64,000 bases of DNA from Candidatus Nanoarchaeia archaeon. Its GTDB lineage: Archaea > Nanobdellota > Nanobdellia > Pacearchaeales > GW2011-AR1. The stretch lies in assembly GCA_028713045.1 (NCBI GenBank), contig JAQTOY010000002.1, positions 60-64,059 on the forward strand, written 5' to 3'. Of the stretch, positions 7,853 to 30,022 are shown one piece after another. Numbering within the stretch: position 1 is the stretch's first letter; every line of letters starts with the position of its first letter. The notes under the pieces are model-generated. The model did no database searches, was not told the DNA's origin, and was given only the letters and a program-made list of their open reading frames with translations. The translations under genes and the position numbers were made by a program.

Positions 7853-7917
7853 TTCTATAAAACAACCTAAAATATTTAATTCATTTATTATTCTTACATC
7901 AAGAAATAAATTTTTCC

Positions 7918-8646
7918 TTACTCTCTAACTGCATGCCATTCATTATCAGCAGGTATCTTTCTTTCAATTTTTGGAGCCGGAATTACATAATAAGCTTTAT
8001 GTCCGCTTGCTGAAGCTTCGCTCACTACAATCCCTCCATCATTATAATTTGAATTTGGACGATGCTCTGCAGGGGAAATTGGGCGATAGCTGACTTGCGC
8101 AACTTTATCAGGGATGATTGTTTTTGGAATTGAATTTGGTGGAGTAAGTGGTAGGGTTTGTAATTGTGTCCCACTAGGTGTTGGTGGTGCAGGAACAGTG
8201 CCACGCTCATTTGCAGGCGCAGGAGTTGGTTGTGGTGTTGGGATTATTTCTTGTCCATTATCATAAATCGCTCCAGTTTCTAATCCTCCGCAGCAAGGGT
8301 CTTGAAATCCATAATTATACATGGGAGCAGAAAAAAACGGTTGTGCATATCCATATCCATAACCTCCCAATCCATATCCATACCCTCCTCGATGACATCC
8401 TAAATTAGACAGCTCACTAAAAAATGCAGATATATTTCTAAAAAATCCTCTTATAGGACCAACTCCACGAAAATGAGCTGGCCCACATCCATAATAAACT
8501 GGCGGACTAAAACAAGAATCGCATACTTGCCCACCCCATACTCCTTGAGGAACCATCTCCATTGGAGGTTGTGAATTAGCAGGACCTACTAATAATCCTA
8601 AACTCAATGTTGCTGCAGAAACCGCCCTTACTATTTCTTTTTTCAT
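7918..8646 (-). CDS. secreted Gly/Tyr-rich and Pro-rich protein
   Basis: Start trimmed to Met42 of the tracked ORF, giving a Sec-type signal peptide MKKEIVRAVSAATLSLGLLVGPANS. GGYGYGLGGYGYGY and PTPQPTPAP low-complexity segments. Confidence 0.6.
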   Translation of the reverse strand: MKKEIVRAVSAATLSLGLLVGPANSQPPMEMVPQGVWGGQVCDSCFSPPVYYGCGPAHFRGVGPIRGFFRNISAFFSELSNLGCHRGGYGYGLGGYGYGYAQPFFSAPMYNYGFQDPCCGGLETGAIYDNGQEIIPTPQPTPAPANERGTVPAPPTPSGTQLQTLPLTPPNSIPKTIIPDKVAQVSYRPISPAEHRPNSNYNDGGIVVSEASASGHKAYYVIPAPKIERKIPADNEWHAVRE

Positions 8647-8754
8647 AATATTAAAATAATGGAAACAAATTATATAAATATTATTATATTTTGATATATT
8701 CTTCTGGATAATTACCAACGATAAATTTATAAACGCTTTTTTAAATATAATGAA

Positions 8755-8958
8755 ATGAACGACCCTCATTTAGAATCAAGATTTCCACAAAGAACCGAAA
8801 GGGACAATGCCGTTCCATTTTATTTAACATTGGCAGCTTTTGCTCTAGGCGGATTGCTTTCATTGCCATTCATACCCAGTTGTAGTGAAAACAAAGGAAG
8901 AACAAGTCCTCCAATGATTTATCCAGTAGAGTTTAAATCTATTTATTCCCAAAGATAA
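8755..8958 (+). CDS. possible small membrane protein
   Basis: One TM-like segment (FYLTLAAFALGGLLSLPFI). It overlaps only the discarded upstream part of the 7918 ORF. Confidence 0.35.
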   Translation: MNDPHLESRFPQRTERDNAVPFYLTLAAFALGGLLSLPFIPSCSENKGRTSPPMIYPVEFKSIYSQR

Positions 8959-9158
8959 AGTCTTTTTGCACAGTTTTCAGGTTAACAGAAACCTTTATAA
9001 ATATGCTTTCCAGATATATATAAGATTAAGTAAGAGACGAAAAGGATATATAATATCAGATTATATCAATCATATTCATGTTCATTTTGAACGCAGTTAG
9101 ATAAATTATATAACGATTAGAACATCTTTTTCTTTGCTTATCTTAATCTAGGATAAAA

Positions 9159-10349
9159 ATGGCTAAGATAAGCCCAGTATCAATAAAATACATAATACAT
9201 GCAAAATTTGAAGCTAGCGGAGCAATTGAAAAACCAGATATAATCGGGGCAATATTTGGACAAACCGAAGGTCTTTTAGGAGAAGATTTGGAGATGAGAG
9301 AACTCCAAAAGTCTGGAAAAATAGGCAGGATAGAAGTCAATGTCGATTATGATGAAGGAAAAACTATTGGTGAAATAGAAGTTCCTTCTGCAATGGACAA
9401 AACAGAAACAACAATAATTGCAGCTGCTTTAGAGACCATTGAAAGGGTTGGTCCAAGCGACACAAAAATAACAATAGAAGGTATTGAAGATGTAAGGGGA
9501 AGCAAAAGAGATTATATTCTTGAAAGAGCAAAAAAACTAATGGAAAAATTAGGAGACACGGGCAATGATTTTAGTGAAATCACTGATGAGATAAAAACTT
9601 CTGCGAAAGTTGCGAAAATACAGGCCTATGGAACTGAAAATCTTCCATGCGGGGACATTTCCGGAGATGAACTTATAATTGTTGAAGGAAGGGCTGATGT
9701 TGTAAATCTTTTAAAAAAAGGCATTAAAAATGTCATAGCAATGAATGGAACTAACTTGCCTCAGACAATTAAGAAACTTACAGAAGAAAAACCCGAAGTT
9801 ACTCTTTTTGTTGATGGCGATAGAGGTGGAAATCTTATAATCAAAAACGTAGTTGAAAATGCAAAAATAGATTTCATTGCAATGGCTCCTGAAGGAAAAG
9901 AAGTTGAGGAATTGACTGGAAAGGAAATTCTTCAAGCATTAAGAAAAAAAATTCCAGCAAGAGAATATTCTTTGAATCAAAGGAATAGGGGCGTAAGAAG
10001 ATATGACGAAGTTGAAAACAGAAAACCTGTAGTAGAACTTGCAGAAAAACCAAGAAAAGAAATCCAAAAAATAACTGCAAAAGAAAAAGAGCAGATTAAA
10101 GATTCTATAAATGAACTGATAGGCACAAAAGGAGCTATAATCTTTAATAACAAACTGGAACCTATTAAAAAACTTCCAGTCAGCAGGTTGTCTCCTTTGC
10201 TACGGCTTGATGAAGAACCCTACATAATTGCTATGGATGGTACTGCAACCCCAAAACTTGTTGAAATCTGCGAGCAGATGGGATGTCATAATATTATTGC
10301 AACAAATTTTGTTTACACAGACACACCGATAAATTTAGTTAGCATGTGA
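9159..10349 (+). CDS. dnaG: archaeal DnaG-type primase (TOPRIM domain)
   Basis: TOPRIM motifs ELIIVEGRADVVNL and LFVDGDRGGNLI. The N-terminal region is typical of archaeal DnaG. Confidence 0.9.
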   Translation: MAKISPVSIKYIIHAKFEASGAIEKPDIIGAIFGQTEGLLGEDLEMRELQKSGKIGRIEVNVDYDEGKTIGEIEVPSAMDKTETTIIAAALETIERVGPSDTKITIEGIEDVRGSKRDYILERAKKLMEKLGDTGNDFSEITDEIKTSAKVAKIQAYGTENLPCGDISGDELIIVEGRADVVNLLKKGIKNVIAMNGTNLPQTIKKLTEEKPEVTLFVDGDRGGNLIIKNVVENAKIDFIAMAPEGKEVEELTGKEILQALRKKIPAREYSLNQRNRGVRRYDEVENRKPVVELAEKPRKEIQKITAKEKEQIKDSINELIGTKGAIIFNNKLEPIKKLPVSRLSPLLRLDEEPYIIAMDGTATPKLVEICEQMGCHNIIATNFVYTDTPINLVSM

Positions 10350-10471
10350 GGATACTTAGGTATACCGGTTGCATACGCTTAATTCTACGAAGTTAAAAAC
10401 GCAGAGGGTTTATGATTTTAAAAATTCTGTTTTAGAATAAGATTTAAAAACCATTTTTTTATAGTCTTTTA

Positions 10472-10762
10472 ATGGAAATTAATGAAATAAAATTAGAATC
10501 TACAGGATTGGCAAAATTTGTTCAGGAAAGTTTAGGAGGAAGAACCATTATAAGTGATGGTTTAGGCCATAATTTTGCATTAGATTTTGGAGGAAATGTT
10601 GTTGATACAGAAGCACTAGTGGGCAGAGTAGCTGATTTCTATACTTCCAGAGGGTATGTACAACCAGATTCTGCTCACCTTAGTTTTGCAAATGAAGATA
10701 AAAAAAGAGATATTTTTTTAACAATTAAACCCTCATTTGTTTATGTGGATATATCTGCTTAA
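10472..10762 (+). CDS. hypothetical protein (orphan class), 96 aa
   Basis: Intact ORF with a TATA-like A/T box just upstream. Confidence 0.5.
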   Translation: MEINEIKLESTGLAKFVQESLGGRTIISDGLGHNFALDFGGNVVDTEALVGRVADFYTSRGYVQPDSAHLSFANEDKKRDIFLTIKPSFVYVDISA

Positions 10763-10878
10763 GATTAATAATAAATTTAAATTCGCAATAGTAAATGAGG
10801 TTTGAAATAGCAATCAATAAAGGTAACTTATTATTATTTCTTTAATCCCAGAACATTTAAATAGTTTTTTTATTTTTA

Positions 10879-11361
10879 TTGCATATGAAATTAGCTGAAA
10901 AAAGTAGGGATAAATCTCAATACGTTAGAATCATTATAATCATCCTGATACCGATTCTGGTTATATCTGCAATTTACCTATTCTATATATTTAATTCAAA
11001 ATCTTGCGAAGATGAAACTTGTTTCATCTCTGCAATTGAACACTGCCAAAAAGCCTCTTGGCTGAAAGAAGAGGCAGATTCTGTCTGGATGCTGAGGATA
11101 TTAGGAAAAGAAGACAATAATCATTGTAGATTATATGCGAGATTAGTAAACCTTCGAAGCGGAGCTCTTGATTCTGAAAAGCTAATTGGAAAGGATATGA
11201 CCTGTATTGTATTAAATACTGAAACCAGTTTTCCTTCATCAGATATGGCCGAATGCACAGGTATATTGAAAGAAGAAATTCAGGATATAATAATAAAGAG
11301 GATGCATGATTATATTCTTAGTAATATCGGAGAAATAAAAGAAGAGTTCGGAGCGATTTAA
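10879..11361 (+). CDS. membrane-anchored protein with Cys-containing ectodomain
   Basis: N-terminal signal-anchor helix IIIIILIPILVISAIYLFYIF. Confidence 0.55.
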   Translation: MHMKLAEKSRDKSQYVRIIIIILIPILVISAIYLFYIFNSKSCEDETCFISAIEHCQKASWLKEEADSVWMLRILGKEDNNHCRLYARLVNLRSGALDSEKLIGKDMTCIVLNTETSFPSSDMAECTGILKEEIQDIIIKRMHDYILSNIGEIKEEFGAI

Positions 11362-11363
11362 AA

Positions 11364-11564
11364 TTAAACCGCAAGATATTCAGAACCAATCCTTATATTA
11401 ATTTTTTTAGAATGTTCCTCAAATCTTTGCAATCTTTCTAAAAATTCATATGCATCTTGATTAGGAAATGTGATTATGGTAGTATAGGCAGGTATACCCA
11501 TTTTTTTAGCTTCTCTAATCATAGCCTCCCCTAATCTTTGCCCCAAAGTTTTTTCTTTAGACAT
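11364..11564 (-). CDS. hypothetical small protein, 66 aa
   Basis: Intact ORF. No motif recognised. Confidence 0.4.
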   Translation of the reverse strand: MSKEKTLGQRLGEAMIREAKKMGIPAYTTIITFPNQDAYEFLERLQRFEEHSKKINIRIGSEYLAV

Positions 11565-11744
11565 ATTAATTATTAATAAAAAATAGCTTAAATATATTTA
11601 TATTCAATGATTATTGGATTCTTTCTATTCTAGCTCACTCTTTTCTTAAAAATCCTGCATAAACATTAATGATAAGTTTATAGTTTCCTCATTGTTCTTC
11701 AAGTTAATTCATTAACTTAATAAATAACTCGGGCTTTATTTTAT

Positions 11745-12515
11745 ATGGTAATTTATTTCGGACCAGCAGGATTAGGTCCTGTTAAAACCGCAACTGAAAG
11801 ATTGGAGGAATACCACAAATTAGGTTTGAAAGCCTGCGAGATAGCATTTACTTATGGTGTTTATATTCATAATGAGAAAGACGCAGAAGAAATAGGAAAA
11901 ACTGCAAAAAAATTGGACATTAATCTATCAATTCACGCACCCTATTGGATTAATCTTAACAGCGAGGAAAAAAAGAAGGTAGAAGAAAGCAAAAAAAGGA
12001 TTCTTGATTGCTGCAAAATAGGGGAGGTTTTACAAGCGGATGTAGTTGTCTTTCATCCAGGATATTATGGAAAAATGAAAGAAGAGGAGACTTATGAGAA
12101 CATTAAAAATGCGATTCTTGAAATTCAAAAGGAAATTAAAAAACATAATTGGAAAATTAAGATAGCTCCAGAAACCATGGGAAAAGTTAATGTTTTTGGC
12201 TCCATTGAACAGATTGCTAAACTAGTTGAAGAAACTAACTGCAGTTTTTGCATTGATTTTGCACATGTTCTCGCTAGAGAAAAAAAAGTTGATTATGAAA
12301 AAATAAGATCTCTTTTCAAGCCGGAAAAATGGCATTGCCATTTTTCAGGGATTGTTTACAGTGAAAAGGGAGAAAGACACCATATTAAGACCCCAAAAGA
12401 AAAATGGAAGGAGCTTTTAGATAATCTTCCAAAAAATAAAGACATAATAATAATCAACGAAAGCCCAGATATGATTAATGATTCTGTTGATGGGCTGAAG
12501 ATGTGGAAGGGGTAG
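11745..12515 (+). CDS. nfo: endonuclease IV-like AP endonuclease (xylose-isomerase-like TIM barrel)
   Basis: Metal-ligand blocks LSIHAPYWINL, VVVFHPGYYG, IAPETMGK and CIDFAHV. Confidence 0.75.
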   Translation: MVIYFGPAGLGPVKTATERLEEYHKLGLKACEIAFTYGVYIHNEKDAEEIGKTAKKLDINLSIHAPYWINLNSEEKKKVEESKKRILDCCKIGEVLQADVVVFHPGYYGKMKEEETYENIKNAILEIQKEIKKHNWKIKIAPETMGKVNVFGSIEQIAKLVEETNCSFCIDFAHVLAREKKVDYEKIRSLFKPEKWHCHFSGIVYSEKGERHHIKTPKEKWKELLDNLPKNKDIIIINESPDMINDSVDGLKMWKG

Positions 12516-12775
12516 TTCCAAGCATTCTTGCAGTCTCTCATATCAGCTTTATTCTATTAACAACTTCCGGTGATGAAGAGAGATCATTATATCTGAACAA
12601 AACCAAACTCTGCAAAGTACGTCCCTTTCAGGACTATCATGCTTTGAACAATAGGATTTTCCCTCAACTATATTTTGATATCAGCATAACTGACTATGAT
12701 TATAATCATGACAGCATGCTCCGCATTGCAAGCATTTTTCATTACCCCAAATACCCAAATTATCTATTGGCATTT

Positions 12776-13132
12776 TTACCTCTGAATATATTCATCCAAT
12801 AATCCCTCTTCAAATCTCGGACATTCTGCTTCACCCGTCCTTCTTTTTTCAGAAATTCTCTGTGAATATTCTCTTTTGCTTCTTAATTCCTCTGCTCCGG
12901 CAAAACCCGTATAAAATCCAAGAGTTAAAGGTAATAAATTAAACTTAAAATGACCTAGTGAGCAAAGTCCCGCGAACATCCATTTCATAGCTTCTTCGCC
13001 CATATTTTTTGATTCAAAAGGAAATGAAATATATCTATAAAATGCAACCGGAGCTAGTAATCCTCCTGCAACCCCTGTGTAAATATTTAATCTTTCCCTT
13101 AAATTGTAAAATTGTTTAAGCGGGGTTCTCAT
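12776..13132 (-). CDS. hypothetical membrane-associated protein
   Basis: Two to three hydrophobic segments. Lies 12 nt downstream of the RHH gene. Confidence 0.45.
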   Translation of the reverse strand: MRTPLKQFYNLRERLNIYTGVAGGLLAPVAFYRYISFPFESKNMGEEAMKWMFAGLCSLGHFKFNLLPLTLGFYTGFAGAEELRSKREYSQRISEKRRTGEAECPRFEEGLLDEYIQR

Positions 13133-13144
13133 TTTAAATTAAGT

Positions 13145-13369
13145 TTAGAAGTTTTGTTTCATTCTCTTCTTCATTATCTGCCTTCTTCTGATCCTTTTAT
13201 CAATATTATTCAGAATCTTTTGGGATTTTTCAGGGGTTTTTTTGCAGATATTGAGTATATAGAACATCTTGTTAAGGATGTCATTGAAGGTTTCTCTTTC
13301 ATATTCCTTCAGTTTATTCAGTCTTTCGCGGGTATCTTTGGTTATTTTTATCGTCGTTATTTCAGCCAT
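13145..13369 (-). CDS. ribbon-helix-helix (CopG/antitoxin-like) DNA-binding protein
   Basis: N-terminal beta-strand plus helices: TTIKITKDTRERLNKLKEYERETFNDILNKM. Confidence 0.5.
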   Translation of the reverse strand: MAEITTIKITKDTRERLNKLKEYERETFNDILNKMFYILNICKKTPEKSQKILNNIDKRIRRRQIMKKRMKQNF

Positions 13370-19810: not shown

Positions 19811-20098
19811 ATGTCAGAAAGAAGAGATATAACAGTTCATTTATGGAATGGAAAGGGATATGATAAACATACTCTGGACTTTAATAAAGGAGATGCCGGA
19901 AGTTACGCCGAGTGTGAAAGAAGATTTTTAGCTTTGCTACCTCCCTTAGGATTATCTGATAGAACTGCTGCAAGATACCATTCTGATTTTAACGGAGTTT
20001 CAACAGCTTTATTTAATGGATATTATAGGAGAGGAGCCGAACATGCATCAATTGCTCTTAGACCTGATAAAAGAATTAGACTAGAACCAAGATTATAA
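19811..20098 (+). CDS. hypothetical protein (orphan class), 95 aa
   Basis: Intact ORF convergent on the end of the Ubl-type operon. Confidence 0.45.
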   Translation: MSERRDITVHLWNGKGYDKHTLDFNKGDAGSYAECERRFLALLPPLGLSDRTAARYHSDFNGVSTALFNGYYRRGAEHASIALRPDKRIRLEPRL

Positions 20099-23100: not shown

Positions 23101-23322
23101 TTCTTCGACAAAAACCAATTTTTCTTCTAAATCTCGGATAATACTCATTGCCAATTCATAATATAAATTTCCTTCAGACATTTGAACTAGTCTGGAATGG
23201 TTATCATCTATTTCAGCTCTTCTTTGGAATAAATCCACATCCTGCAATCTAAGTGTAGAATTTAACAAATTTCTTGCTAAAGGGTCTGTTGTTATTTGCA
23301 GTAGACTATTCAGGTTTGCCAT
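20116..23322 (-). CDS. large protein of unknown function (1068 aa), last gene of the Ubl-type operon
   Basis: Uninterrupted 3.2-kb ORF. 17-nt overlap with the upstream gene. No P-loop or other motif recognised. Confidence 0.75.
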   Translation of the reverse strand: MANLNSLLQITTDPLARNLLNSTLRLQDVDLFQRRAEIDDNHSRLVQMSEGNLYYELAMSIIRDLEEKLVFVEEFPFPKYSPRRGTEHKDVVFVNGGPVTGLAFPDWDEAGKVRVEIGCGPYAECDEPDLSTRMHVQTRVIDSMESFRKFVHDGLHGGFRNANPFKKNSLLPENVGDLVYCVEYPNHPKTGEHSCVPNLGNILPPKSRLGVIERTDGNYEQRVFFIKGFDGKTRRYARKNQDRYFTKIRGFIDDLLLVRLNGCWDMEDVTSTPLMRDDEVEEVVVPTLVKYGEDPRTYTHHIKHQGLLRRQYRSLLETGASPREVVECMNEDYGVSLDDVLKIGGVRQKDLAPSVLPKLRELLKEIRYYRKFADVMIGESAKLLSMSPEELVLFGSQRADAELRMPELSDKYYFRRVRGRTYNGRGLEGYLTEIHDHGDVAEWGANLYTNMTNPEEQNSVAFSSLEVVGLDGYRQVCNSFELELVYYFLRHQTEVLESAGDRFKETALHAREFLEAKLDEYAQHEKQKAKERKRQQLINRPSEERGRYRETNWENELEQAPLIKPGEDYSSLMGRLDEFVMGPLLSFGYSHEDAGKFVLKHSHNNPLISRAIDDIIASRTRPKTNPFQTSLGQRMLIAARGGTGRLPNYLDVLGRLQGFKEGDGVDFAEAMEVSNLILAATLGLREGPQGALTQVAEMVEEAASGEKRKYFSEWEVGRMLEGCLETGGNVRLAINNAYAEDRERKRKQPEKAKTYGRTWIKDEPDGCKDVMKLCITPKDVDLEKCGLFLLEEIALMNKDDPRNRQFFYLRERLPEKDLLASLGRVPLYPLSQSNYYLNASVDKEHYRDNNDRRIVISLGEYLHLDFLGIHHDQHFIDSQVEALVKKGIPITILKEEPRHKKVSVCIANPQPVYLSYTQAIDVRSEIEMLRGLGVPVNIQGNHRLEQVENGFRLYPQYESGAYDGQLFLIGQVDKNTFGRLSKQERRLLKRMSGDEHIYDRVEFDHSCIYARTVDYYGPDRTRELLTRVGKRIEAEFNLDPGLLDRYLEKVESGRRIQLAPKQLLLGED

Positions 23323-24217
23323 CCGAAGGTAAAAGATTAAGTTTTAATAAATCTGCTCCGGCCCGAGTTAAATCATAGATTCCAAGCACCTTCATAGAAT
23401 ATAAAATTTTTAATCTTGATGGAATCTCCGGCATTCTAACAATCTCTGACAATCTAAATTGTTCTCTGAAAGGTTCATCCAATAAATCGTGCACTACTGC
23501 CGAACATAAGGTATTGCATAAATCATTATGATCAACAATTTCTTCTCTTAATCTCCTGTTCCTTAACAATGGAAATTTTTGTATTAATAATTCTCCGACT
23601 TGAATTAATTGGCCACTGACTTCACAATCTAGAATCGACAGCTTTTCTTCGCTTCTTCTTCTAACCCATTCTTCCAAGGCAGTATCTAAATCATGACCAT
23701 ATCCTGAGACAAGTGCTGCTAGATTCTCACCTTGCAAGGATTTTCTTGCAAATCTTACTTCACCTTGGTATAGTGCTGTGCTTGCTTCAACAAACCGGTC
23801 GTATAATACCTCAAAATGATGATAAGAATGACTTGAATTTGTTAAATAACTCATAACATTATCCAAAAAAGTACAAACCAATGTTCCTTGAAGTTTTTCA
23901 GGAGGAATTCTATCAGGAACTTCCTCTCTCCCATATCTTTCTTTTTCTTCATCTAAATCAAATAATCCTCGTAATAATTTTACAACCCCTGAACTATATT
24001 CATCAGTTCCAGATTGGTAATCTAAATACTTGTCAAATCTTTTAGTTGCTTCATCAATTTTTCTAAAGCGTGTTCTATTAACTAGAACCCGAGCAACATA
24101 TTCTGGTATAGTAACTCTGCTTCTAGGCAAGGTAACAACTTCTCTAAAAACTCCAGGGCCACTTTCCTCATCTAAAAAATCCCTAAACAATAATTCCCCA
24201 GGATTCTGATCGTTCAT
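23306..24217 (-). CDS. protein of unknown function (303 aa), operon gene 5
   Basis: Intact ORF starting 3 nt after the E1-like gene. Probably helical, no motif recognised. Confidence 0.65.
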   Translation of the reverse strand: MNDQNPGELLFRDFLDEESGPGVFREVVTLPRSRVTIPEYVARVLVNRTRFRKIDEATKRFDKYLDYQSGTDEYSSGVVKLLRGLFDLDEEKERYGREEVPDRIPPEKLQGTLVCTFLDNVMSYLTNSSHSYHHFEVLYDRFVEASTALYQGEVRFARKSLQGENLAALVSGYGHDLDTALEEWVRRRSEEKLSILDCEVSGQLIQVGELLIQKFPLLRNRRLREEIVDHNDLCNTLCSAVVHDLLDEPFREQFRLSEIVRMPEIPSRLKILYSMKVLGIYDLTRAGADLLKLNLLPSDGKPE

Positions 24218-24220
24218 TTT

Positions 24221-25774
24221 TTATTTTACCCTCCTTAAAATATCACCTTCCTCTTCATACCATTGGTTAAAAGGTTTTCCTTTTACCCTTATTTCTTCAC
24301 CTTGCGAGTTTATAATTCTTTCTACTTCGCAACTTTTAAGGGGTACAAAATATGGAACCTTGGTCCCAAGGTCATTATCCGGACTTACTCTAACATATTC
24401 AAATCTTGGGTGCTCTTTCATGCTGTATTTAAACTGCCCCTGTAATGGATGTCCTGAAAACAGATTAACAGTTTCTCCTGCTAAAATAGCAGCACACAAT
24501 GACGTGATTAGAGCTTGAGAGGGTAATACTTCTGGATCTGTGCAATGTCTATGAGTTCGTCTGATTGAATCTAAATATGCCTGTTTTAAAAAATCATATT
24601 GATACAACATTGACGATGTTTGTCCAGGCGCATAAGCATATACTACAAGACTGGAATCATCGCAAGCTCCAAGCAATAACGGAATCCTGTGCTGTTGAGA
24701 GTAATTAATGACTCTCATCTGATTGTCAAATCCATCAACAGCACTCACTAATAAATCAACTTCAGGAAAATTGCTTTTTTCATCAAATCTTTCGGTTTGT
24801 GCATGATATCTTGTTCTTGTTTTTCTTCTGTTAAAATGCCTTCTTGCTGCAACTGCCTTATATTCTCCCTCTTCATCAACGCAATGCGGTGCACGTGAAA
24901 AATTAGAGATTTCCCATTTATCAAAGTCTCTTATATAGAAACTCCGAAATCCTAAATCATGAGTTGCTTCAAGATACATAAGTCCAATAGCCCCACAGCC
25001 AATAACTCCAATTCTTTTTTCTAATGGATTAAAACTTGACCAATCAAAATTATTTTCATGAGAGGTTCTTGAATCTGATAATAGATTCCAGGTAATTACC
25101 TCATCATGTTTAAGTTCTTGGCCATAATCAAATGATCTTCTTACTATTTCTGATAATCCCAGTGCCGCGCATGCCATTGAGGTAATTGTTGTTTGAGGTC
25201 TTCTATTTAATCGTCTTTGAGGCATTAAAAATTCAGGTCTAATTGCAGCTTGTGAATTATAATCTACAATCCTTAATTCATGGAAATTAGAGGCCCCTAA
25301 AACCAATAAAGTATTTTTTTCATCAGCAGATCTAAATGGCAAGGATTTAGAATTCACTCCCCATGATCTTGCAAGATTTTGCAATAAATATCTTTTTTCT
25401 TCCCAATCATTGCCTGAATGAAAAGCATAATTCATGAAAAATCCCATATTCTGAACTGTTTCAGTCCTAATTCCAGAACATAATCCTCCGACGCTAATAT
25501 TTGGGTTTAATCCTTGCACAATCTCACCAATTCTAGTTGCAATCTCTTCTCCTCTGCTAATCTCTTGGCCCATAAAACTCTGGCTATTTCTTGCTCTTTC
25601 ATCATTTGCGCAGATTATCCTGCCGATTTCCAAGCAACTTCCAAGCAAGGTTGCATACCTTGATGTTAACCCTCTTCCAAGAGTGTATAATAATGCTTCA
25701 TCTAAGGTTTCTTGATTCCAACCTTTAATCAGTTGTTGCCTAGCGATTCTATTGCTAACCATCCAAACCTCCAA
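24221..25774 (-). CDS. ThiF/MoeB/E1-like adenylyltransferase with a ~250-aa N-terminal extension
   Basis: RIGVIGCGAIGLMYLE...IRDFDKWEISNFSRAP (GxGxxG plus DxD..SN..R, codons 24893-25009). Then YKAVAARR, AVDGFDNQMR and SLCAAILAGETVNLFSG. Confidence 0.8.
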   Translation of the reverse strand: MEVWMVSNRIARQQLIKGWNQETLDEALLYTLGRGLTSRYATLLGSCLEIGRIICANDERARNSQSFMGQEISRGEEIATRIGEIVQGLNPNISVGGLCSGIRTETVQNMGFFMNYAFHSGNDWEEKRYLLQNLARSWGVNSKSLPFRSADEKNTLLVLGASNFHELRIVDYNSQAAIRPEFLMPQRRLNRRPQTTITSMACAALGLSEIVRRSFDYGQELKHDEVITWNLLSDSRTSHENNFDWSSFNPLEKRIGVIGCGAIGLMYLEATHDLGFRSFYIRDFDKWEISNFSRAPHCVDEEGEYKAVAARRHFNRRKTRTRYHAQTERFDEKSNFPEVDLLVSAVDGFDNQMRVINYSQQHRIPLLLGACDDSSLVVYAYAPGQTSSMLYQYDFLKQAYLDSIRRTHRHCTDPEVLPSQALITSLCAAILAGETVNLFSGHPLQGQFKYSMKEHPRFEYVRVSPDNDLGTKVPYFVPLKSCEVERIINSQGEEIRVKGKPFNQWYEEEGDILRRVK

Positions 25775-26957
25775 TATCTCTTTTTTCTAATCTTTCTTTT
25801 AATTCCATAGCATTACAATAACTTGGAGAAACCCCTCTTAAAATTCCATCAACAGAATTATACTGCTGTTCATATCCGCTTCCATTAACAAATGGATTGC
25901 CAAATAAATCCAGGACCCTTTGAACTGTTTGAACATCTGCCATATTAGCTTTTGGATCCGATCTGGCAAAAGTCATAAAGTGATTAAGCAATCTAAATAA
26001 ATCTCCTCCAGTCATAGGCAATTTTCTTTCCAAATCTCTTAGCAACTGAGGATCATGATAAAATATTGATGAATGCTGAATTGACCGAGGTATAACCGTA
26101 GGCCTTTTTATTTCTGGAATGACCAGTGGCTTTACATGATAGTTAATCTCCGCTCTTATCATTTCTGAATCAAATTCTGAAACAACATCATCTTCAACTT
26201 TTAATTCTAATCCATCCCGCTTTTCTAATAATCTATAACTTTCAGGGCCTCCATTGAAACAGTATTTTTTATATTCTCCAAGTCCAAACCAAGGTTCTTC
26301 AATACCTCTGCAATAAATTAAAAACAAGCTGTAACCTTGGTTTACTCTAAAATAAATTTTTGGTTCTCCTCTATCTCTGAGAACAACGCCGTCTTGAGAT
26401 TTTAATGCTTCTCGAATATTATCTCTAGTATCAACTTGTGCAAATTCATTGCTGACATCAGCCCAGCCATAAAAATTCTGATAAACCCAGTTATCTCCTG
26501 TAAATTTTTTAAAAGTATCCAAATCTACATGAGAGGGCTCTAAAAATTCTCCTGGATGGATATGAGTTATTCCAAATAATCTCAATGGATTTTCTCTCTT
26601 TTCCTCATTTATTGAATCTAATCTTCGTAAGAATTCATCCGCACTTGCAGCAGAATAATCTACAAGCCCCGGACTAACTAATTGATGCATTAGCATTGCA
26701 TCTTCGATTCTATTGGGGGATGACTCCCCGTATACATTCATAAATCCAACTTCAAATCTTCTTAAGTAAGGAAAATGTTCATCCATAACAGAAACATATT
26801 CCTTGATTTTTCTATCAACACTTCTTGGTAAAACCCATTTTAATGGAGTTTGAATAAGAGTTTCAGCTGTTTCTGATTTATGGCCAACCACACTTTCTCC
26901 CCTTACTATTGCATCCATTGCTTCATCCAAATCATCAACAACTAATGCGTGTTTCAT
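25755..26957 (-). CDS. JAMM/MPN+ (JAB) metalloprotease-domain protein with a ~250-aa C-terminal extension
   Basis: E69 in RRFEVGFMNVYG, then THIHPGEFLEPSHVDLD, which matches HxHx7Sx2D (codons 26523-26564). Confidence 0.8.
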   Translation of the reverse strand: MKHALVVDDLDEAMDAIVRGESVVGHKSETAETLIQTPLKWVLPRSVDRKIKEYVSVMDEHFPYLRRFEVGFMNVYGESSPNRIEDAMLMHQLVSPGLVDYSAASADEFLRRLDSINEEKRENPLRLFGITHIHPGEFLEPSHVDLDTFKKFTGDNWVYQNFYGWADVSNEFAQVDTRDNIREALKSQDGVVLRDRGEPKIYFRVNQGYSLFLIYCRGIEEPWFGLGEYKKYCFNGGPESYRLLEKRDGLELKVEDDVVSEFDSEMIRAEINYHVKPLVIPEIKRPTVIPRSIQHSSIFYHDPQLLRDLERKLPMTGGDLFRLLNHFMTFARSDPKANMADVQTVQRVLDLFGNPFVNGSGYEQQYNSVDGILRGVSPSYCNAMELKERLEKRDIGGLDG

Positions 26958-28342
26958 TGTTGAACACCTCGGGTTTCTGTTAAATCATGAATATTAGTTT
27001 TAATTAAACCCCTTCTGCCAACTTCGGCTTCAGTTATTGGAGTCATCCCTTCAATATTTCTATGATGAGAACCAGGACTCATTCCATTTTGCAGAGTTCC
27101 AACTCCATCTATCATTATATAATCAACAACATTTTCCGTCCAGGGTCTTGTTGATGTAGGTTTATAATCTAAAGGACCACAAAATGTTTGTGGATGACCT
27201 AAACGAAATTCATGATTAACAAACAAAAAATCTCCATTAACCTGAATTTTAGAAACTTCTACTCCTAAATCCGAATACTTCAGAAAAACTCCAACCTCGG
27301 GAGGATTTTCAAACGGATAATATAAATTCGGATCGGTTAAAGATCTCATTGCATAAGGAGGAGGTTTGATATAAACATAAAGACATTGATGTTTTCTGTC
27401 TTCTCCATAATCTCGTTCTCCTGGAAATGCATATGGAAAAAAATGAATTCCACTGTTTTCATGGCAAATATCAGTTTCTGATAATTTTACATTTCCTTTT
27501 AATCTAGAGCAAAATTCAATGAATTCATCAACTCTTTTTGCATTCAATGTTCTTGCTGCTTCATTTAAATAATTTTGAGTTCTAAACCCCTGGTATTTTT
27601 TAACATATTCTTCTGGAGTTATTTCCCCTCGTTTTCTGAATAATCTTCTATTGCCTCTTTTATCAACAACTTCAACATTTCCAACAAATTTTCTTGGCTC
27701 TAATTCATAAATTACAGGCTTAACTTCATCATGACGAAATCCAGGTTTTTCATAGATTAATAAATTCGGATTAAAATCAAAACTATCTGATAATTCTAAA
27801 TGCCTGTCAATGCCAGTTCTTTCTTCAAAATCCTGGTCTGCCTCAGCCTGTTCTGCCTGTTCTTTTTTCAATAAATCTGATATGCTTCTTCTGACCATTT
27901 GCCTTGTTAATCTTCTTTTTGAAGTGCTCTCTGAAATCATTCCTAAAAATTCTCTTTTTCTTAATTCCAATAATTCGCTTCTTGGAGTAGTTGCAATCCG
28001 GCTGTCAAATTCCATTAAAGCAGGCAAAACATCACTAAAAACATGAAATAACAATAAACTCTGGTCTTTTGACATTTCTATATCCATTAAGGTTTGAAAT
28101 GCCCTTTCAACTGCCTTAGCCTTAAATTCATTAATATTAAGAGCATTGCAAACAGAATCGCAATGGCAAATATTTTCAAGACGTCCTTCATAAGACAATG
28201 ACCCGAGAACTTTGCCTTCAACTTTTAAAACCCCAGAGTTAGGAATTCTTGAAGAATGCAGAAGATAACAATGGCCATTTAAAATTATTCCATGATGACC
28301 GATTAATCTTTCAAAACCATAAAATTGTAATTTGTCAATCAT
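26954..28342 (-). CDS. protein with a C-terminal E2/UBC-like (or UEV/RWD-like) region; N-terminal part unknown
   Basis: CLYVYIKPPP...YYPFENPPEVGVFLK resembles the canonical E2 segment F.L.I.FP.DYPFKPPKV.F. It is followed by GHPQTFCGP (His-Pro plus Cys). The spacing is atypical. Confidence 0.45.
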   Translation of the reverse strand: MIDKLQFYGFERLIGHHGIILNGHCYLLHSSRIPNSGVLKVEGKVLGSLSYEGRLENICHCDSVCNALNINEFKAKAVERAFQTLMDIEMSKDQSLLLFHVFSDVLPALMEFDSRIATTPRSELLELRKREFLGMISESTSKRRLTRQMVRRSISDLLKKEQAEQAEADQDFEERTGIDRHLELSDSFDFNPNLLIYEKPGFRHDEVKPVIYELEPRKFVGNVEVVDKRGNRRLFRKRGEITPEEYVKKYQGFRTQNYLNEAARTLNAKRVDEFIEFCSRLKGNVKLSETDICHENSGIHFFPYAFPGERDYGEDRKHQCLYVYIKPPPYAMRSLTDPNLYYPFENPPEVGVFLKYSDLGVEVSKIQVNGDFLFVNHEFRLGHPQTFCGPLDYKPTSTRPWTENVVDYIMIDGVGTLQNGMSPGSHHRNIEGMTPITEAEVGRRGLIKTNIHDLTETRGVQQ

Positions 28343-28396: not shown

Positions 28397-30022
28397 TCAA
28401 CCAGTCGGTCTTCCAGCAGTAGCAGTTGCAGTGGTTGTATAGGCAGTATGCTTTTTCCTTTCTGGAGGGGGCGAAGGTTTATCTCTATCTTTTGGTTTAT
28501 CAGGCTCTGTTATTGTTAACTCACTTTTATATTCTGTAAACACCGTTCTGAATGGAACAGTTAAATCATATCTTTGACCATTAAAAAATACAGTATGGTC
28601 TCCTCTTTGTCTTTTTAAAAATTCTTTTGCATTGTCACGGTCGCGTGGCTGCGTAAAATGAGATTCATCAGCTAAATATTCATAAAAATCCCCGACAGTC
28701 TGAGGTAAAGCATCTTCTGGAAAAACAATACCTAACGCGGCTTGTCCTAACTTAATTCTAACTCCATAATGTTTTACTTCAGGAATATCCTCTCCAGGTT
28801 TGCTTGTAGCAGTTTGTCCAACAACGCCAGGAGTTGCAACAGCAGCTGCTGAAGAATCTGCAAGAGTTGATTCAAGTCCTTTTCTTCCAACAGGAGTTCT
28901 ACTGCTTGCATCATCTAATGAAACCTGACTAGTTAAATCAATACTAGGCCCGCTAATGCCGGAATCTGTAGTTTGAGTTAATTTTGGTAAAACTGGTTCA
29001 TAACCTTTTTCTATTTGTGTTTCCTTAAAAGCACCTGCGGCTTTTTCTAATTCCTTTAACTTAGGTAAAAATTCCGCTCTAGATTTAGCAACTCTTGGAG
29101 AAACTTGTTCAAATCTTAATCTAGCAGGATTTCTTTCCGGAAGTCTTTTTACAGAGGAGTTTGTAAGCGCTTTTTCAGCATCTTTACTCTGTTGAGTATA
29201 ACTGGTATTTGCAGTTTGATAAGTTTGAACAACTGCCTCAGAAGCTAAATATGCAGGAGTTAATAAACTTCCAAAAGCAGCTGTACTTTCTTCAAGTGTT
29301 CTTACAAAATTCTCTAAAGTTATTGTTGCATCAACAACTTCAACAACGAGCTTAGGTTCAACAGTTGTTTTGATAAGTTTCGGTTTTCTTTGAGGCGGTT
29401 GTGCAGGAGCAGTAGGTTTAGCAGGAGATGCACTAGGTTTAGCTGAAACTCCTAACTCTTTTGCAGCATCTTCAAGAGAAAGAAGTGAGCCATTATAAAG
29501 CCCTGCTCTAGATAATTCTGAATCAATTTTAGCATATTGGAATTTGCTAGTATCCGGTTTAGTTTTTTGTCCTCTTAAGAATAATCTTCTGCCTTGTTTT
29601 AAATCCACTGAATAATCTCTTCCAGCCTCTCTTGGAGCATCAACCTTTATCAATTTAACAATAGTTCCAGTTTGATAATGAGCAGGACCTGAGCCATATT
29701 TCGCAGCAACCGCCTTTGCAAGTTCGTTTGGAACAGAAGCAACAGCAACTCTTGCAGGTTGGGGTGCCTTAACCTCGTCATAATCAACAGCAAGTTCTTG
29801 AGGTAATAATGCTTCAACATAATGATAATTTCTTACAGTATCTGCTGATTTCATTCCCTCAGCATCATGGGCGATTTTCTCTAAATTCACTCTTGCAGTA
29901 CGAATACCTTGGTTTCCTAGAAATCCAGCCTGACATTGAGAATATAATTCAGCAAGAGATTTTGAATGCGGATATCCTTGCATTGGTTTTCCATTAGGTC
30001 CTGTAATAACTTGCTGAGACAT
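28397..30022 (-). CDS. 541-aa low-complexity protein with a ubiquitin-like segment near the C-terminus and a terminal Gly; first gene of the operon
   Basis: HTVFFNGQRYDLTVPFRTVFTEYKSELTITE aligns with ubiquitin [31 protein letters not shown]. The ORF ends ...ATAGRPTG-stop. A/P/S/T-rich linkers. Confidence 0.6.
   Translation of the reverse strand: MSQQVITGPNGKPMQGYPHSKSLAELYSQCQAGFLGNQGIRTARVNLEKIAHDAEGMKSADTVRNYHYVEALLPQELAVDYDEVKAPQPARVAVASVPNELAKAVAAKYGSGPAHYQTGTIVKLIKVDAPREAGRDYSVDLKQGRRLFLRGQKTKPDTSKFQYAKIDSELSRAGLYNGSLLSLEDAAKELGVSAKPSASPAKPTAPAQPPQRKPKLIKTTVEPKLVVEVVDATITLENFVRTLEESTAAFGSLLTPAYLASEAVVQTYQTANTSYTQQSKDAEKALTNSSVKRLPERNPARLRFEQVSPRVAKSRAEFLPKLKELEKAAGAFKETQIEKGYEPVLPKLTQTTDSGISGPSIDLTSQVSLDDASSRTPVGRKGLESTLADSSAAAVATPGVVGQTATSKPGEDIPEVKHYGVRIKLGQAALGIVFPEDALPQTVGDFYEYLADESHFTQPRDRDNAKEFLKRQRGDHTVFFNGQRYDLTVPFRTVFTEYKSELTITEPDKPKDRDKPSPPPERKKHTAYTTTATATAGRPTG

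Follow-up and report, generated by a model that had tools for sequence, protein, structure and literature searches.

A protein with an invariant cysteine occupies the E2 slot of an archaeal Bil-like operon and probably serves as its thioester carrier

A stretch of 64,000 nucleotides from contig JAQTOY010000002.1 of a Candidatus Nanoarchaeia archaeon (assembly GCA_028713045.1), referred to below in its whole length as the window, carries a gene, here called X, whose 462-amino-acid (aa) product we regard, on balance, as the putative E2-equivalent thioester carrier of a ubiquitin-type conjugation cassette. Four circumstances taken together lead to this reading of the sequences: X lies in the slot that belongs to the E2 (conjugating enzyme) in Bil operons, it is linked to an E1 (activating enzyme), it holds a lone reactive and invariant cysteine, and no other E2 is recognisable in the genome. 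The genomic evidence for X is much stronger than the motif evidence, and its membership of the UBC fold is unproven. The parts of the gene and its protein to which we refer are as follows.

26954..28342, minus strand: gene X in the E2 slot, an open reading frame (ORF) for a 462-aa protein without annotated family
27476..28342, minus strand: N-terminal ~290 residues of X, delimited by DSSP on the predicted model
26957..27475, minus strand: C-terminal cysteine domain of X, residues ~290-462, from the AlphaFold domain model and DSSP
27293..27319, minus strand: YPFENPPEV, residues 342-350, read as the E2 beta3-beta4 linker
27212..27217, minus strand: N376-H377, the position put on the Asn of the E2 HPN by the hhalign alignment
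27173..27199, minus strand: GHPQTFCGP, residues 382-390
27188..27199, minus strand: G382-H383-P384-Q385, the HPN candidate of the first-pass annotation, not conserved
27179..27181, minus strand: TGT codon of Cys388, the proposed thioester-accepting nucleophile, invariant in the alignments

X is one of six co-directional, mostly overlapping minus-strand genes that run from 30022 to 20116 and encode a candidate precursor of a ubiquitin-like protein (Ubl), X, a JAB peptidase, an E1 and two accessory proteins. The gene order, the tight linkage between X and E1, the invariant cysteine and the intact catalytic motifs of E1 and JAB are directly observed. An X homologue adjoins the E1 in 12 of the 14 E1 loci examined, of 50 X copies, 43 have a two-domain E1 less than 4 kb away when the place tables are compared by hand, and the two genes often overlap or abut. 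All six cassette genes are syntenic in the window and in two further loci, L001 and L014, and the housekeeping genes on the flanks differ among the three (SMC, RNase HII and EF-1alpha in the window; histone, S27e and eIF2alpha in L001; RNA cyclase, EF-1beta and Trm1 in L014). No UQ_con or CEHH-type (PF14455) E2 is detectable in the window's genome, which is 88% complete. Library scans of X and its neighbours returned only ThiF, for the E1, and a weak JAB match; the cassette in the window, as in Bil, holds no E3 gene.

The breadth of the family depends on the search. A word-indexed search returned two relatives of X only, and a full hidden Markov model (HMM) scan of 1.84 billion representative proteins returned 13 representatives, while viral contigs and metagenome contigs each contained no relatives. 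Within 401 genomes from 280 genera of the small-genome archaeal phylum, whose genome sizes of 0.5-1.9 Mb point to a DPANN-type lineage, a profile of the close clade of X matches seven genomes, and a broader, 29-sequence profile of the C-terminal domain matches 45 (~11%), belonging to 40 genera, with none in the window's own genus and family. Full-length two-domain E1s were recovered by an E1 profile in ~40 of the same 401 genomes. The X proteins range from 270 to 620 aa. In the wider-family operons a small protein of 127-176 aa, ending in ...QQGG followed by two to eight residues, precedes X, JAB and E1; a Pfam scan assigned these small upstream GG proteins to no family. Relatives also display the orders Ubl-X-E1-JAB and JAB-X-E1.

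We aligned 17, 29 and 43 homologues of X, the largest set consisting of the ten-member close clade that includes the window's protein, 19 long and 14 short sequences outside it, with identities falling to 13-20%. Cys388 is invariant in all three alignments; across the 43 sequences it and Gly298 are the sole invariant residues, and the position before the cysteine is always hydrophobic (I, F, L, M or V). None of the alignments contains an invariant His, Asp or Glu, and a cysteine without such a partner is more in keeping with a thioester carrier than with a hydrolase. The first-pass annotation had offered three readings, a divergent active E2, a variant with a shifted cysteine and an inactive UEV/RWD-like adaptor. 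The retention of Cys388 by every one of the 43 homologues favours an active cysteine and disfavours the last of these. A pseudo-E2 scaffold of that kind would fit the N-terminal domain, which is predicted to consist of a helix, four strands and helices and lacks a conserved cysteine. This same part of X, however, carries no E2 signal, and neither Pfam nor Foldseek yields an RWD or UEV match, so that we consider an inactive scaffold scarcely credible.

The invariance of Cys388 also bears on the possibility that this residue is the nucleophile of a cysteine peptidase, X then being a second enzyme of deconjugation or processing. The [FI]-C-G context faintly recalls the GxCG of chymotrypsin-like cysteine proteases, and norovirus 3C-like proteases make up ten of the best 50 Foldseek matches of the domain model. 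These matches are, however, non-significant (E at least 0.95, TM-score 0.11-0.15, probability below 0.1); the 43 sequences contain no conserved His, Asp or Asn partner for the cysteine; no strands follow the cysteine, unlike in the chymotrypsin fold; and a JAB peptidase is already present in every operon. We judge a peptidase role very unlikely.

The first-pass annotation had drawn attention to X through an E2-like string with atypical spacing in the interval 27143-27457, which spans residues 296-400. The string is indeed present in the ORF translation: the segment CLYVYIKPPPYAMRSLTDPNLYYPFENPPEVGVFLK (CLYVY...VGVFLK; residues 320-355, window 27278-27385) contains YPFENPPEV and is followed by GHPQTFCGP with Cys388. 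The spacing is likewise as described, with ~26-34 residues between the motif and GHP and with the cysteine four residues past Pro384. When the window is translated in six frames (128,000 residues), the strict pattern YPF-x(1,2)-PP-x-[VI] turns up a single time, and in 959,000 six-frame residues of the other fetched loci it is found in X orthologues only. Chance does not, therefore, account for the string, which is conserved throughout the close clade. In the ten members of this clade it takes the form [WY]Y[PA]Fx(2)PPx[VI]GV, and elsewhere in the family it is degenerate, [YW]-x-[FY]-x(2-4)-[RK]-[VI]-[GA]-[VI].

The proposal that His383-Pro384 stands for the HPN triad of E2s did not survive comparison with homologues, of which only 2 of 29 have His-Pro at this place. 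The pair at positions -5/-4 from the cysteine is confined to the window's protein and one relative (P0002), a third (P0003) having D-Y, and His383 is accordingly not a kept residue. Outside the close clade a different His-Pro is found 13-16 (mostly 14) residues before the cysteine, in 16 of the 19 long and all 14 short sequences. In these 30 of 33 sequences it never reads HPN; the third position is variable (H-P-[FCYASG], ~14 residues ahead of [ILMV]-C), and the consensus is Y-x-H-P-x-[LIV]-x(8-9)-Q-x-I-C-x-G. The close clade is without this His-Pro, and Y-[LIM]-[NH]-F occupies positions -14 to -11 instead, with F-V-N376-H377-E-F in the window's X and N or H at the aligned position in eight of ten sequences. 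Judged from the alignments, the window's clade has lost the His-Pro upstream of the cysteine. Since profile alignment puts the His-Pro and cysteine of the wider family over the HPN...C motif of E2s, the domain may have a UBC ancestry, if a very remote one. The N-terminal part of X has a conserved segment of its own, LPxLDEFDxRxxxMPRSxLxELRxKE, at residues 106-131.

What can be said of the fold comes from two AlphaFold2 models built on shallow alignments: one of the full-length protein (12 sequences; pLDDT 79.4, pTM 0.72) and one of residues 266-462 (17 sequences; pLDDT 81.9, pTM 0.77). DSSP on the predicted C-terminal domain gives a helix at 268-284, some ten strands in the span 291-380, a loop with Cys388, a 19-residue helix at 401-419 that begins 12 residues after the cysteine, and short helices; no strands occur after Cys388. 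This linear order of helix, strands, cysteine loop, long helix and short helices is compatible with a UBC domain carrying insertions, the UBC fold being made up of an N-terminal helix, an antiparallel meander of four strands, an active-site loop and helices alpha2 to alpha4. In the predicted N-terminal region a helix-bearing beta meander (1-135) is followed by a long helix (147-176), then by a sheet of four strands (194-241) and lastly by a helical hairpin (243-280).

Several results weigh against X as an E2 equivalent. Both models were compared by Foldseek with 350,542 PDB chains, with the best 50 matches listed. Among the matches listed, the best E values are 1.3 for the full-length model and 0.95 for the domain model, the latter with TM-scores of at most 0.17, and no E2, UEV, RWD or SPRY chain is found among the best 50 of either model; the full-length model reached a best E of 0.19 against BFVD. 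BilB, the E2 of Bil systems, has no sequence similarity to E2s, yet superposition of its structure with UBC12 and UBE2D2 gives ~3 A across 94-99 residues. As BilB superposes on UBC structures and the models of X match none, a UBC/RWD fold of X, which the first-pass annotation had put forward, is not supported, though a heavily elaborated UBC core may be present. X also matches nothing in Pfam, NCBIfam, PADLOC or PHROGs, and no E2 family model of Pfam, NCBIfam or PADLOC, whether of the UQ_con, Prok-E2_A-E, CEHH, UFC1 or Atg3/10 kind, matches any of the 39 members scanned. Sequence searches of the PDB with 3-, 12-, 17- and 29-sequence profiles of X gave nothing or chance matches; an antibody heavy chain and BTNL8 (E ~1; 1.5 for BTNL8) were among them and disappeared with a broader profile. 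Of the divergent E2 of the first-pass annotation there remain the E2 position in a Ubl-X-JAB-E1 operon and the invariant Cys388, whereas neither the fold nor an E2 family match could be recovered.

Profile-profile comparison by hhalign gives a less uniform picture. Against a profile of 20 BilB sequences, out of 805 homologues, X scores a probability of only 0.1-0.6%, which adds to the unfavourable results. Against 12 canonical E2 sequences, the C-terminal domain scores P 0.0054, 0.0049 and 0.0098 with 17, 29 and 43 sequences, respectively (probability 4-7%); of 300 column shuffles run for the 17-sequence profile, a single one scored as high. The alignment is collinear: [YW]YxF..P.[RK]V / YPF..PP.V falls on the E2 YPFxPPxV, and then, past an insertion of 16 residues, the family's HP (N376 in the window's protein) falls on HPN, [ILMV]-C on [IV]-C, and the long helix on alpha2. 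With the YPF motif removed, P rises to 0.3-0.36, a further unfavourable point; the register, cysteine on cysteine, is retained, a result biased by the single conserved cysteine on each side. As a control, the structurally proven E2 BilB scores worse than X against the same E2 profile (P = 0.032). Since a true E2 scores this poorly, a non-significant score in this test is compatible with homology of X to E2s. The N-terminal 265 residues gave no signal against E2s, BilB or the C-terminal domain of X itself (P 0.14-0.38; 0.35 for E2s).

The strongest profile score of the flagged segment, and one that detracts from the E2 reading, belongs to a different domain. The BTNL8 B30.2 match in the PDB (E = 1.5) prompted a comparison with SPRY domains, in which the segment aligned to TRIM21 and BTN3A1 with P = 7e-5 and probability 63%; none of 200 shuffles reached this score (null mean 12.1, SD (standard deviation) 2.2, observed 34.9). 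The match is a hairpin of 20-32 columns bearing the signature PPx[VI]G[VI]F[LV]DYExGx[VI]SF, and the P of 7e-5 belongs to the hairpin PPEVGVFLKYSDLGVEVS at window 27278-27319, compared with the B30.2 signature of TRIM21/BTN3A1. The segment thus aligns better to a B30.2/SPRY hairpin than to UBC, and YPFxxPPxV is not specific to E2s in the sense the first-pass annotation gave it. With broader profiles the SPRY score falls to P 0.002-0.003, while UBC P values for X are 5e-3 to 1e-2. As the short strand-turn-strand, rich in proline and valine, resembles two unrelated signatures about equally, the fold is not assignable from the motif alone. SPRY identity was set aside: the likeness is confined to a local hairpin, the comparison with SPSB1, a SPRY protein outside the B30.2 group, gives P 0.67-0.79, the Pfam SPRY model finds no match in seven genomes even at E up to 10, and no SPRY chain stands among the Foldseek matches listed. 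The likeness to B30.2 is most likely due to chance or convergence.

The hairpin nevertheless lends some substance to another reading, that of an E2-independent system in which X recognises targets or acts as an adaptor, much like an E3 or as a substrate receptor, while the E1 alone transfers the tag and Cys388 is structural. The B30.2/SPRY signature is one of protein binding, the C-terminal LxxC(P) of B30.2 lines up with the xFCGP of X, the C-terminal domain of X is beta-rich, and its fold is not E2-like by Foldseek. Conjugation without an E2 is, moreover, established in archaea: the archaeal SAMP and Urm1 systems both conjugate in this way, so that an E2 is not strictly required, which again counts against the role we propose. 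Set against the adaptor are the shortness of the SPRY likeness and its absence from SPSB1, the negative Pfam SPRY scans, the lack of any SPRY chain among the listed Foldseek matches although the PDB holds many, and the loss of the weak BTNL8 match with a broader profile. A purely structural cysteine would, furthermore, rarely be invariant over 43 sequences at 13-20% identity with all its surroundings in flux. We regard the adaptor as improbable.

The E2-equivalent reading of X draws on its partners in the cassette, whose features are listed here.

28397..30022, minus strand: 541-aa candidate Ubl precursor with a conserved C-terminal module and a Gly-ended tail
28493-28801, minus strand: conserved module of the 541-aa protein, residues ~408-510
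25755..26957, minus strand: JAB/JAMM metallopeptidase, 400 aa, with the motif HIHPGEFLEPSHVDLD
24221..25774, minus strand: E1, 517 aa, with predicted inactive and active adenylation domains (Pfam ThiF)
24542-24544, minus strand: codon of the candidate catalytic Cys411 of the E1, invariant in seven E1s
23306..24217, minus strand: 303-aa conserved accessory protein, syntenic in L001, L014 and L009
20116..23322, minus strand: 1068-aa conserved accessory protein, syntenic, 27% identical in L001
20968-20970, minus strand: codon of C785 of the 1068-aa protein, invariant in four orthologues

Only the last ~100 residues of the 541-aa protein are conserved in orthologues, as seen in the comparison with L001. 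It ends in ...TAGRPTG, and its orthologues end in ...PPAGGLA, ...TQGGGVG and ...QIGGTRRPG. Tails of this kind are expected of a Ubl precursor whose end can be trimmed, which makes the protein a candidate for the tag. Its conserved module is preceded by ~400 residues, including a Pro/Ala/Lys-rich linker (AKPSASPAKPTAPAQPPQRKPK); the orthologues measure 312 and 448 aa.

The JAB gene overlaps gene X by 4 nt (ATGA). Its product gives a weak PADLOC JAB match (E = 0.015), and the gene at the same position in L010 passes the Pfam Prok-JAB cut-off. H132 and H134 of the HxH motif are invariant in four orthologues together with the Ser and Asp of HxH...SxxD, and HxH...[ST]xxD recurs in the corresponding gene of every operon surveyed. 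The E1 matches Pfam ThiF with E = 7e-19 over residues 253-466; C411, R294, D340 and GxGxxG are invariant in seven E1s. Its sequence suggests a degenerate adenylation domain in the N-terminal half and an intact one in the C-terminal half, with C411 in a short insertion of the crossover loop. A phmmer search found no PDB relative of this E1. The more distant E1s of the family (L009-L013) carry TSCxDCQ and a C-terminal CxC, a zinc site like that of MoeB and BilD; those of the window's clade have lost TSCxDCQ (now TSSMLYQ) and the C-terminal Cys pair, and have kept Cys411.

The two accessory genes complete the cassette. The 303-aa protein matches no family in Pfam, NCBIfam, PADLOC or PHROGs and has no invariant Cys or His. 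In the 1068-aa protein C785 is invariant in four orthologues, in the context D[LIV]x..C......[DE]E; three of the four have five to eight cysteines in total and the window's protein has 13. C785 could be a third relay cysteine, E3-like in character, or its invariance a coincidence. Between the end of the cassette and the SMC-like gene lies a candidate gene on the plus strand, a 95-aa ORF at window 19811-20098, with no family match.

Beyond the window the company of the E1 is varied. B12-binding radical SAM genes lie downstream of it in L016 (4131-5483) and L017 (12903-14255), a Ser/Thr protein kinase gene does so in L023 (10769-12424), and the accessory genes of other branches include large unknowns. 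Since they vary by branch, the output of the system is probably not uniform. At a further locus, L022 (~7900-13300), there are a Ubl (...QQGGYRI), a JAB and an E1 and no X homologue; three paralogous ~285-aa proteins flank the E1 instead, and may represent a different carrier or adaptor.

These neighbours bear on an alternative role for the cassette, in sulfur relay or small-molecule modification of the ThiS/MoaD/CysO/QbsE type, in which Cys388 would carry a persulfide to an adenylated carrier. JAB peptidases trim GG-tailed carriers in the CysO and QbsE pathways, and the radical SAM genes of the two branches just named would be at home in such a scheme. No desulfurase, rhodanese or biosynthetic gene, however, is present in the window cassette or its two orthologous copies, and the accessory genes differ among branches (radical SAM, protein kinase, large unknowns). 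The E1s of sulfur carriers are homodimers, whereas the E1 here is, by its sequence, predicted to be pseudo-dimeric, inactive plus active, like the protein-conjugating BilD and UBA. A tag located at the end of a 541-aa protein would also be odd for a sulfur carrier, though Type II BilA has N-terminal extensions. A sulfur-relay function is, in our estimate, unlikely.

What could be the course of conjugation if X is indeed the E2 equivalent? The JAB peptidase would trim the short tail of the Gly-ended protein, of 541 aa here and a small GG protein in relatives, and the two-domain E1 would adenylate the exposed glycine and load it on Cys411. By transthiolation the tag would move to Cys388 of X, in the loop that leads from the beta-rich part into the long helix, and would then pass to a target chosen by the lineage-specific N-terminal 290 residues of X, by the accessory proteins or by both. 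Thioester chemistry at Cys388 and transfer to a target are probably the work of X, and the N-terminal part of X, together with its 303-aa and 1068-aa partners, probably handles docking or target choice.

Prokaryotic Ubl-E1-E2-JAB operons as a kind are already well known, and in the literature we searched we found no description of the X-bearing archaeal operon family or of its E2-slot protein. To our knowledge, every characterised ubiquitin-type cascade (eukaryotic, Caldiarchaeum/Asgard, CBASS Cap2, Bil and Bub) uses an E2 of the UBC fold. X is the E2-slot protein of a whole archaeal family of Bil-like operons, and it belongs to no named family and its models are unlike solved structures. With regard to the predicted models, we see two serious possibilities and give each of them somewhat less than even weight: the cysteine domain may be a hyper-diverged UBC fold with two hairpin insertions, or it may be an unrelated fold doing the job of an E2. 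In the former case X would mark the outer limit of the fold and supply a new HP...C signature for finding others; in the latter it would be a convergent E2. It is possible, if doubtful, that X represents an independently invented, non-UBC thioester carrier of Ubl proteins, paired with a eukaryote-style two-domain E1 and widespread in DPANN-like archaea. Were this so, the logic of E1, carrier and target would have arisen at least twice on different scaffolds. Hosts with genomes of ~1 Mb devote ~1% of them to the cassette.

Comparison with known systems places X among several partial likenesses. With B30.2/PRY-SPRY proteins (TRIM21, BTN3A1) it shares the hairpin PPx[VI]G[VI]F[LV].Y..G.[IV].[FV]S and a C-terminal hydrophobic-Cys-(G)P. 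With canonical UBC E2s (UQ_con, e.g. UBE2D2) it shares the sequence of an aromatic-P/x-F-x-PP-x-V strand motif, HP, a hydrophobic residue before the cysteine and a long helix ending near N-G/P, as well as the pairing with an E1 that holds a catalytic-type cysteine. It differs from them in the distance from HP to Cys, ~14 residues in the family as opposed to 10, the HP itself being absent from the window's clade; in ~16-20 extra residues, forming two beta hairpins, between the beta4-like strand and the cysteine; and in short, divergent C-terminal helices.

The BubB protein of Bub systems (6E/DUF6527) offers a parallel of another sort, being a diverged prokaryotic E2-type carrier encoded in an operon with an E1, a Ubl and often a JAB, and one long thought non-functional for want of canonical features. 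The E2 and E1 of Bub work by way of oxyesters on Ser and Tyr and have no catalytic cysteines (PMC11601596). X and its E1, in contrast, keep invariant cysteines; the cassette has no DUF6527 protease, and for X the UBC fold is undemonstrated.

The closest comparison is with Bil, in which the order BilABCD corresponds to Ubl-E2-DUB-E1 (DUB, deubiquitinase), BilD is an E1 with inactive and active adenylation domains, and Type II BilA has N-terminal extensions (10.1101/2023.09.26.559546; the order also in PMC11601596). The differences are considerable. X is archaeal and Bil bacterial, and the window cassette carries two extra conserved genes. X measures 270-620 aa and has a long N-terminal extension, compared with ~200 aa for BilB; it lacks the His and Glu residues of CEHH and bears no likeness to BilB in sequence or profile. 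Type II BilB corresponds to Pfam PF14455 (Metal_CEHH), which matches neither X nor its genome. The resemblance lies in the architecture of the system. The window cassette has the matching order, Ubl-X-JAB-E1 against BilA-BilB-BilC-BilD. X and BilB both display a single catalytic-type cysteine well downstream of a Y-x-[LF]-x-PP-x-V strand motif, both systems provide an E1 partner with inactive and active adenylation domains, predicted from sequence in the window's case, and in both the Ubl, which may have N-terminal extensions, needs trimming by JAB, as is predicted for the cassette described here.

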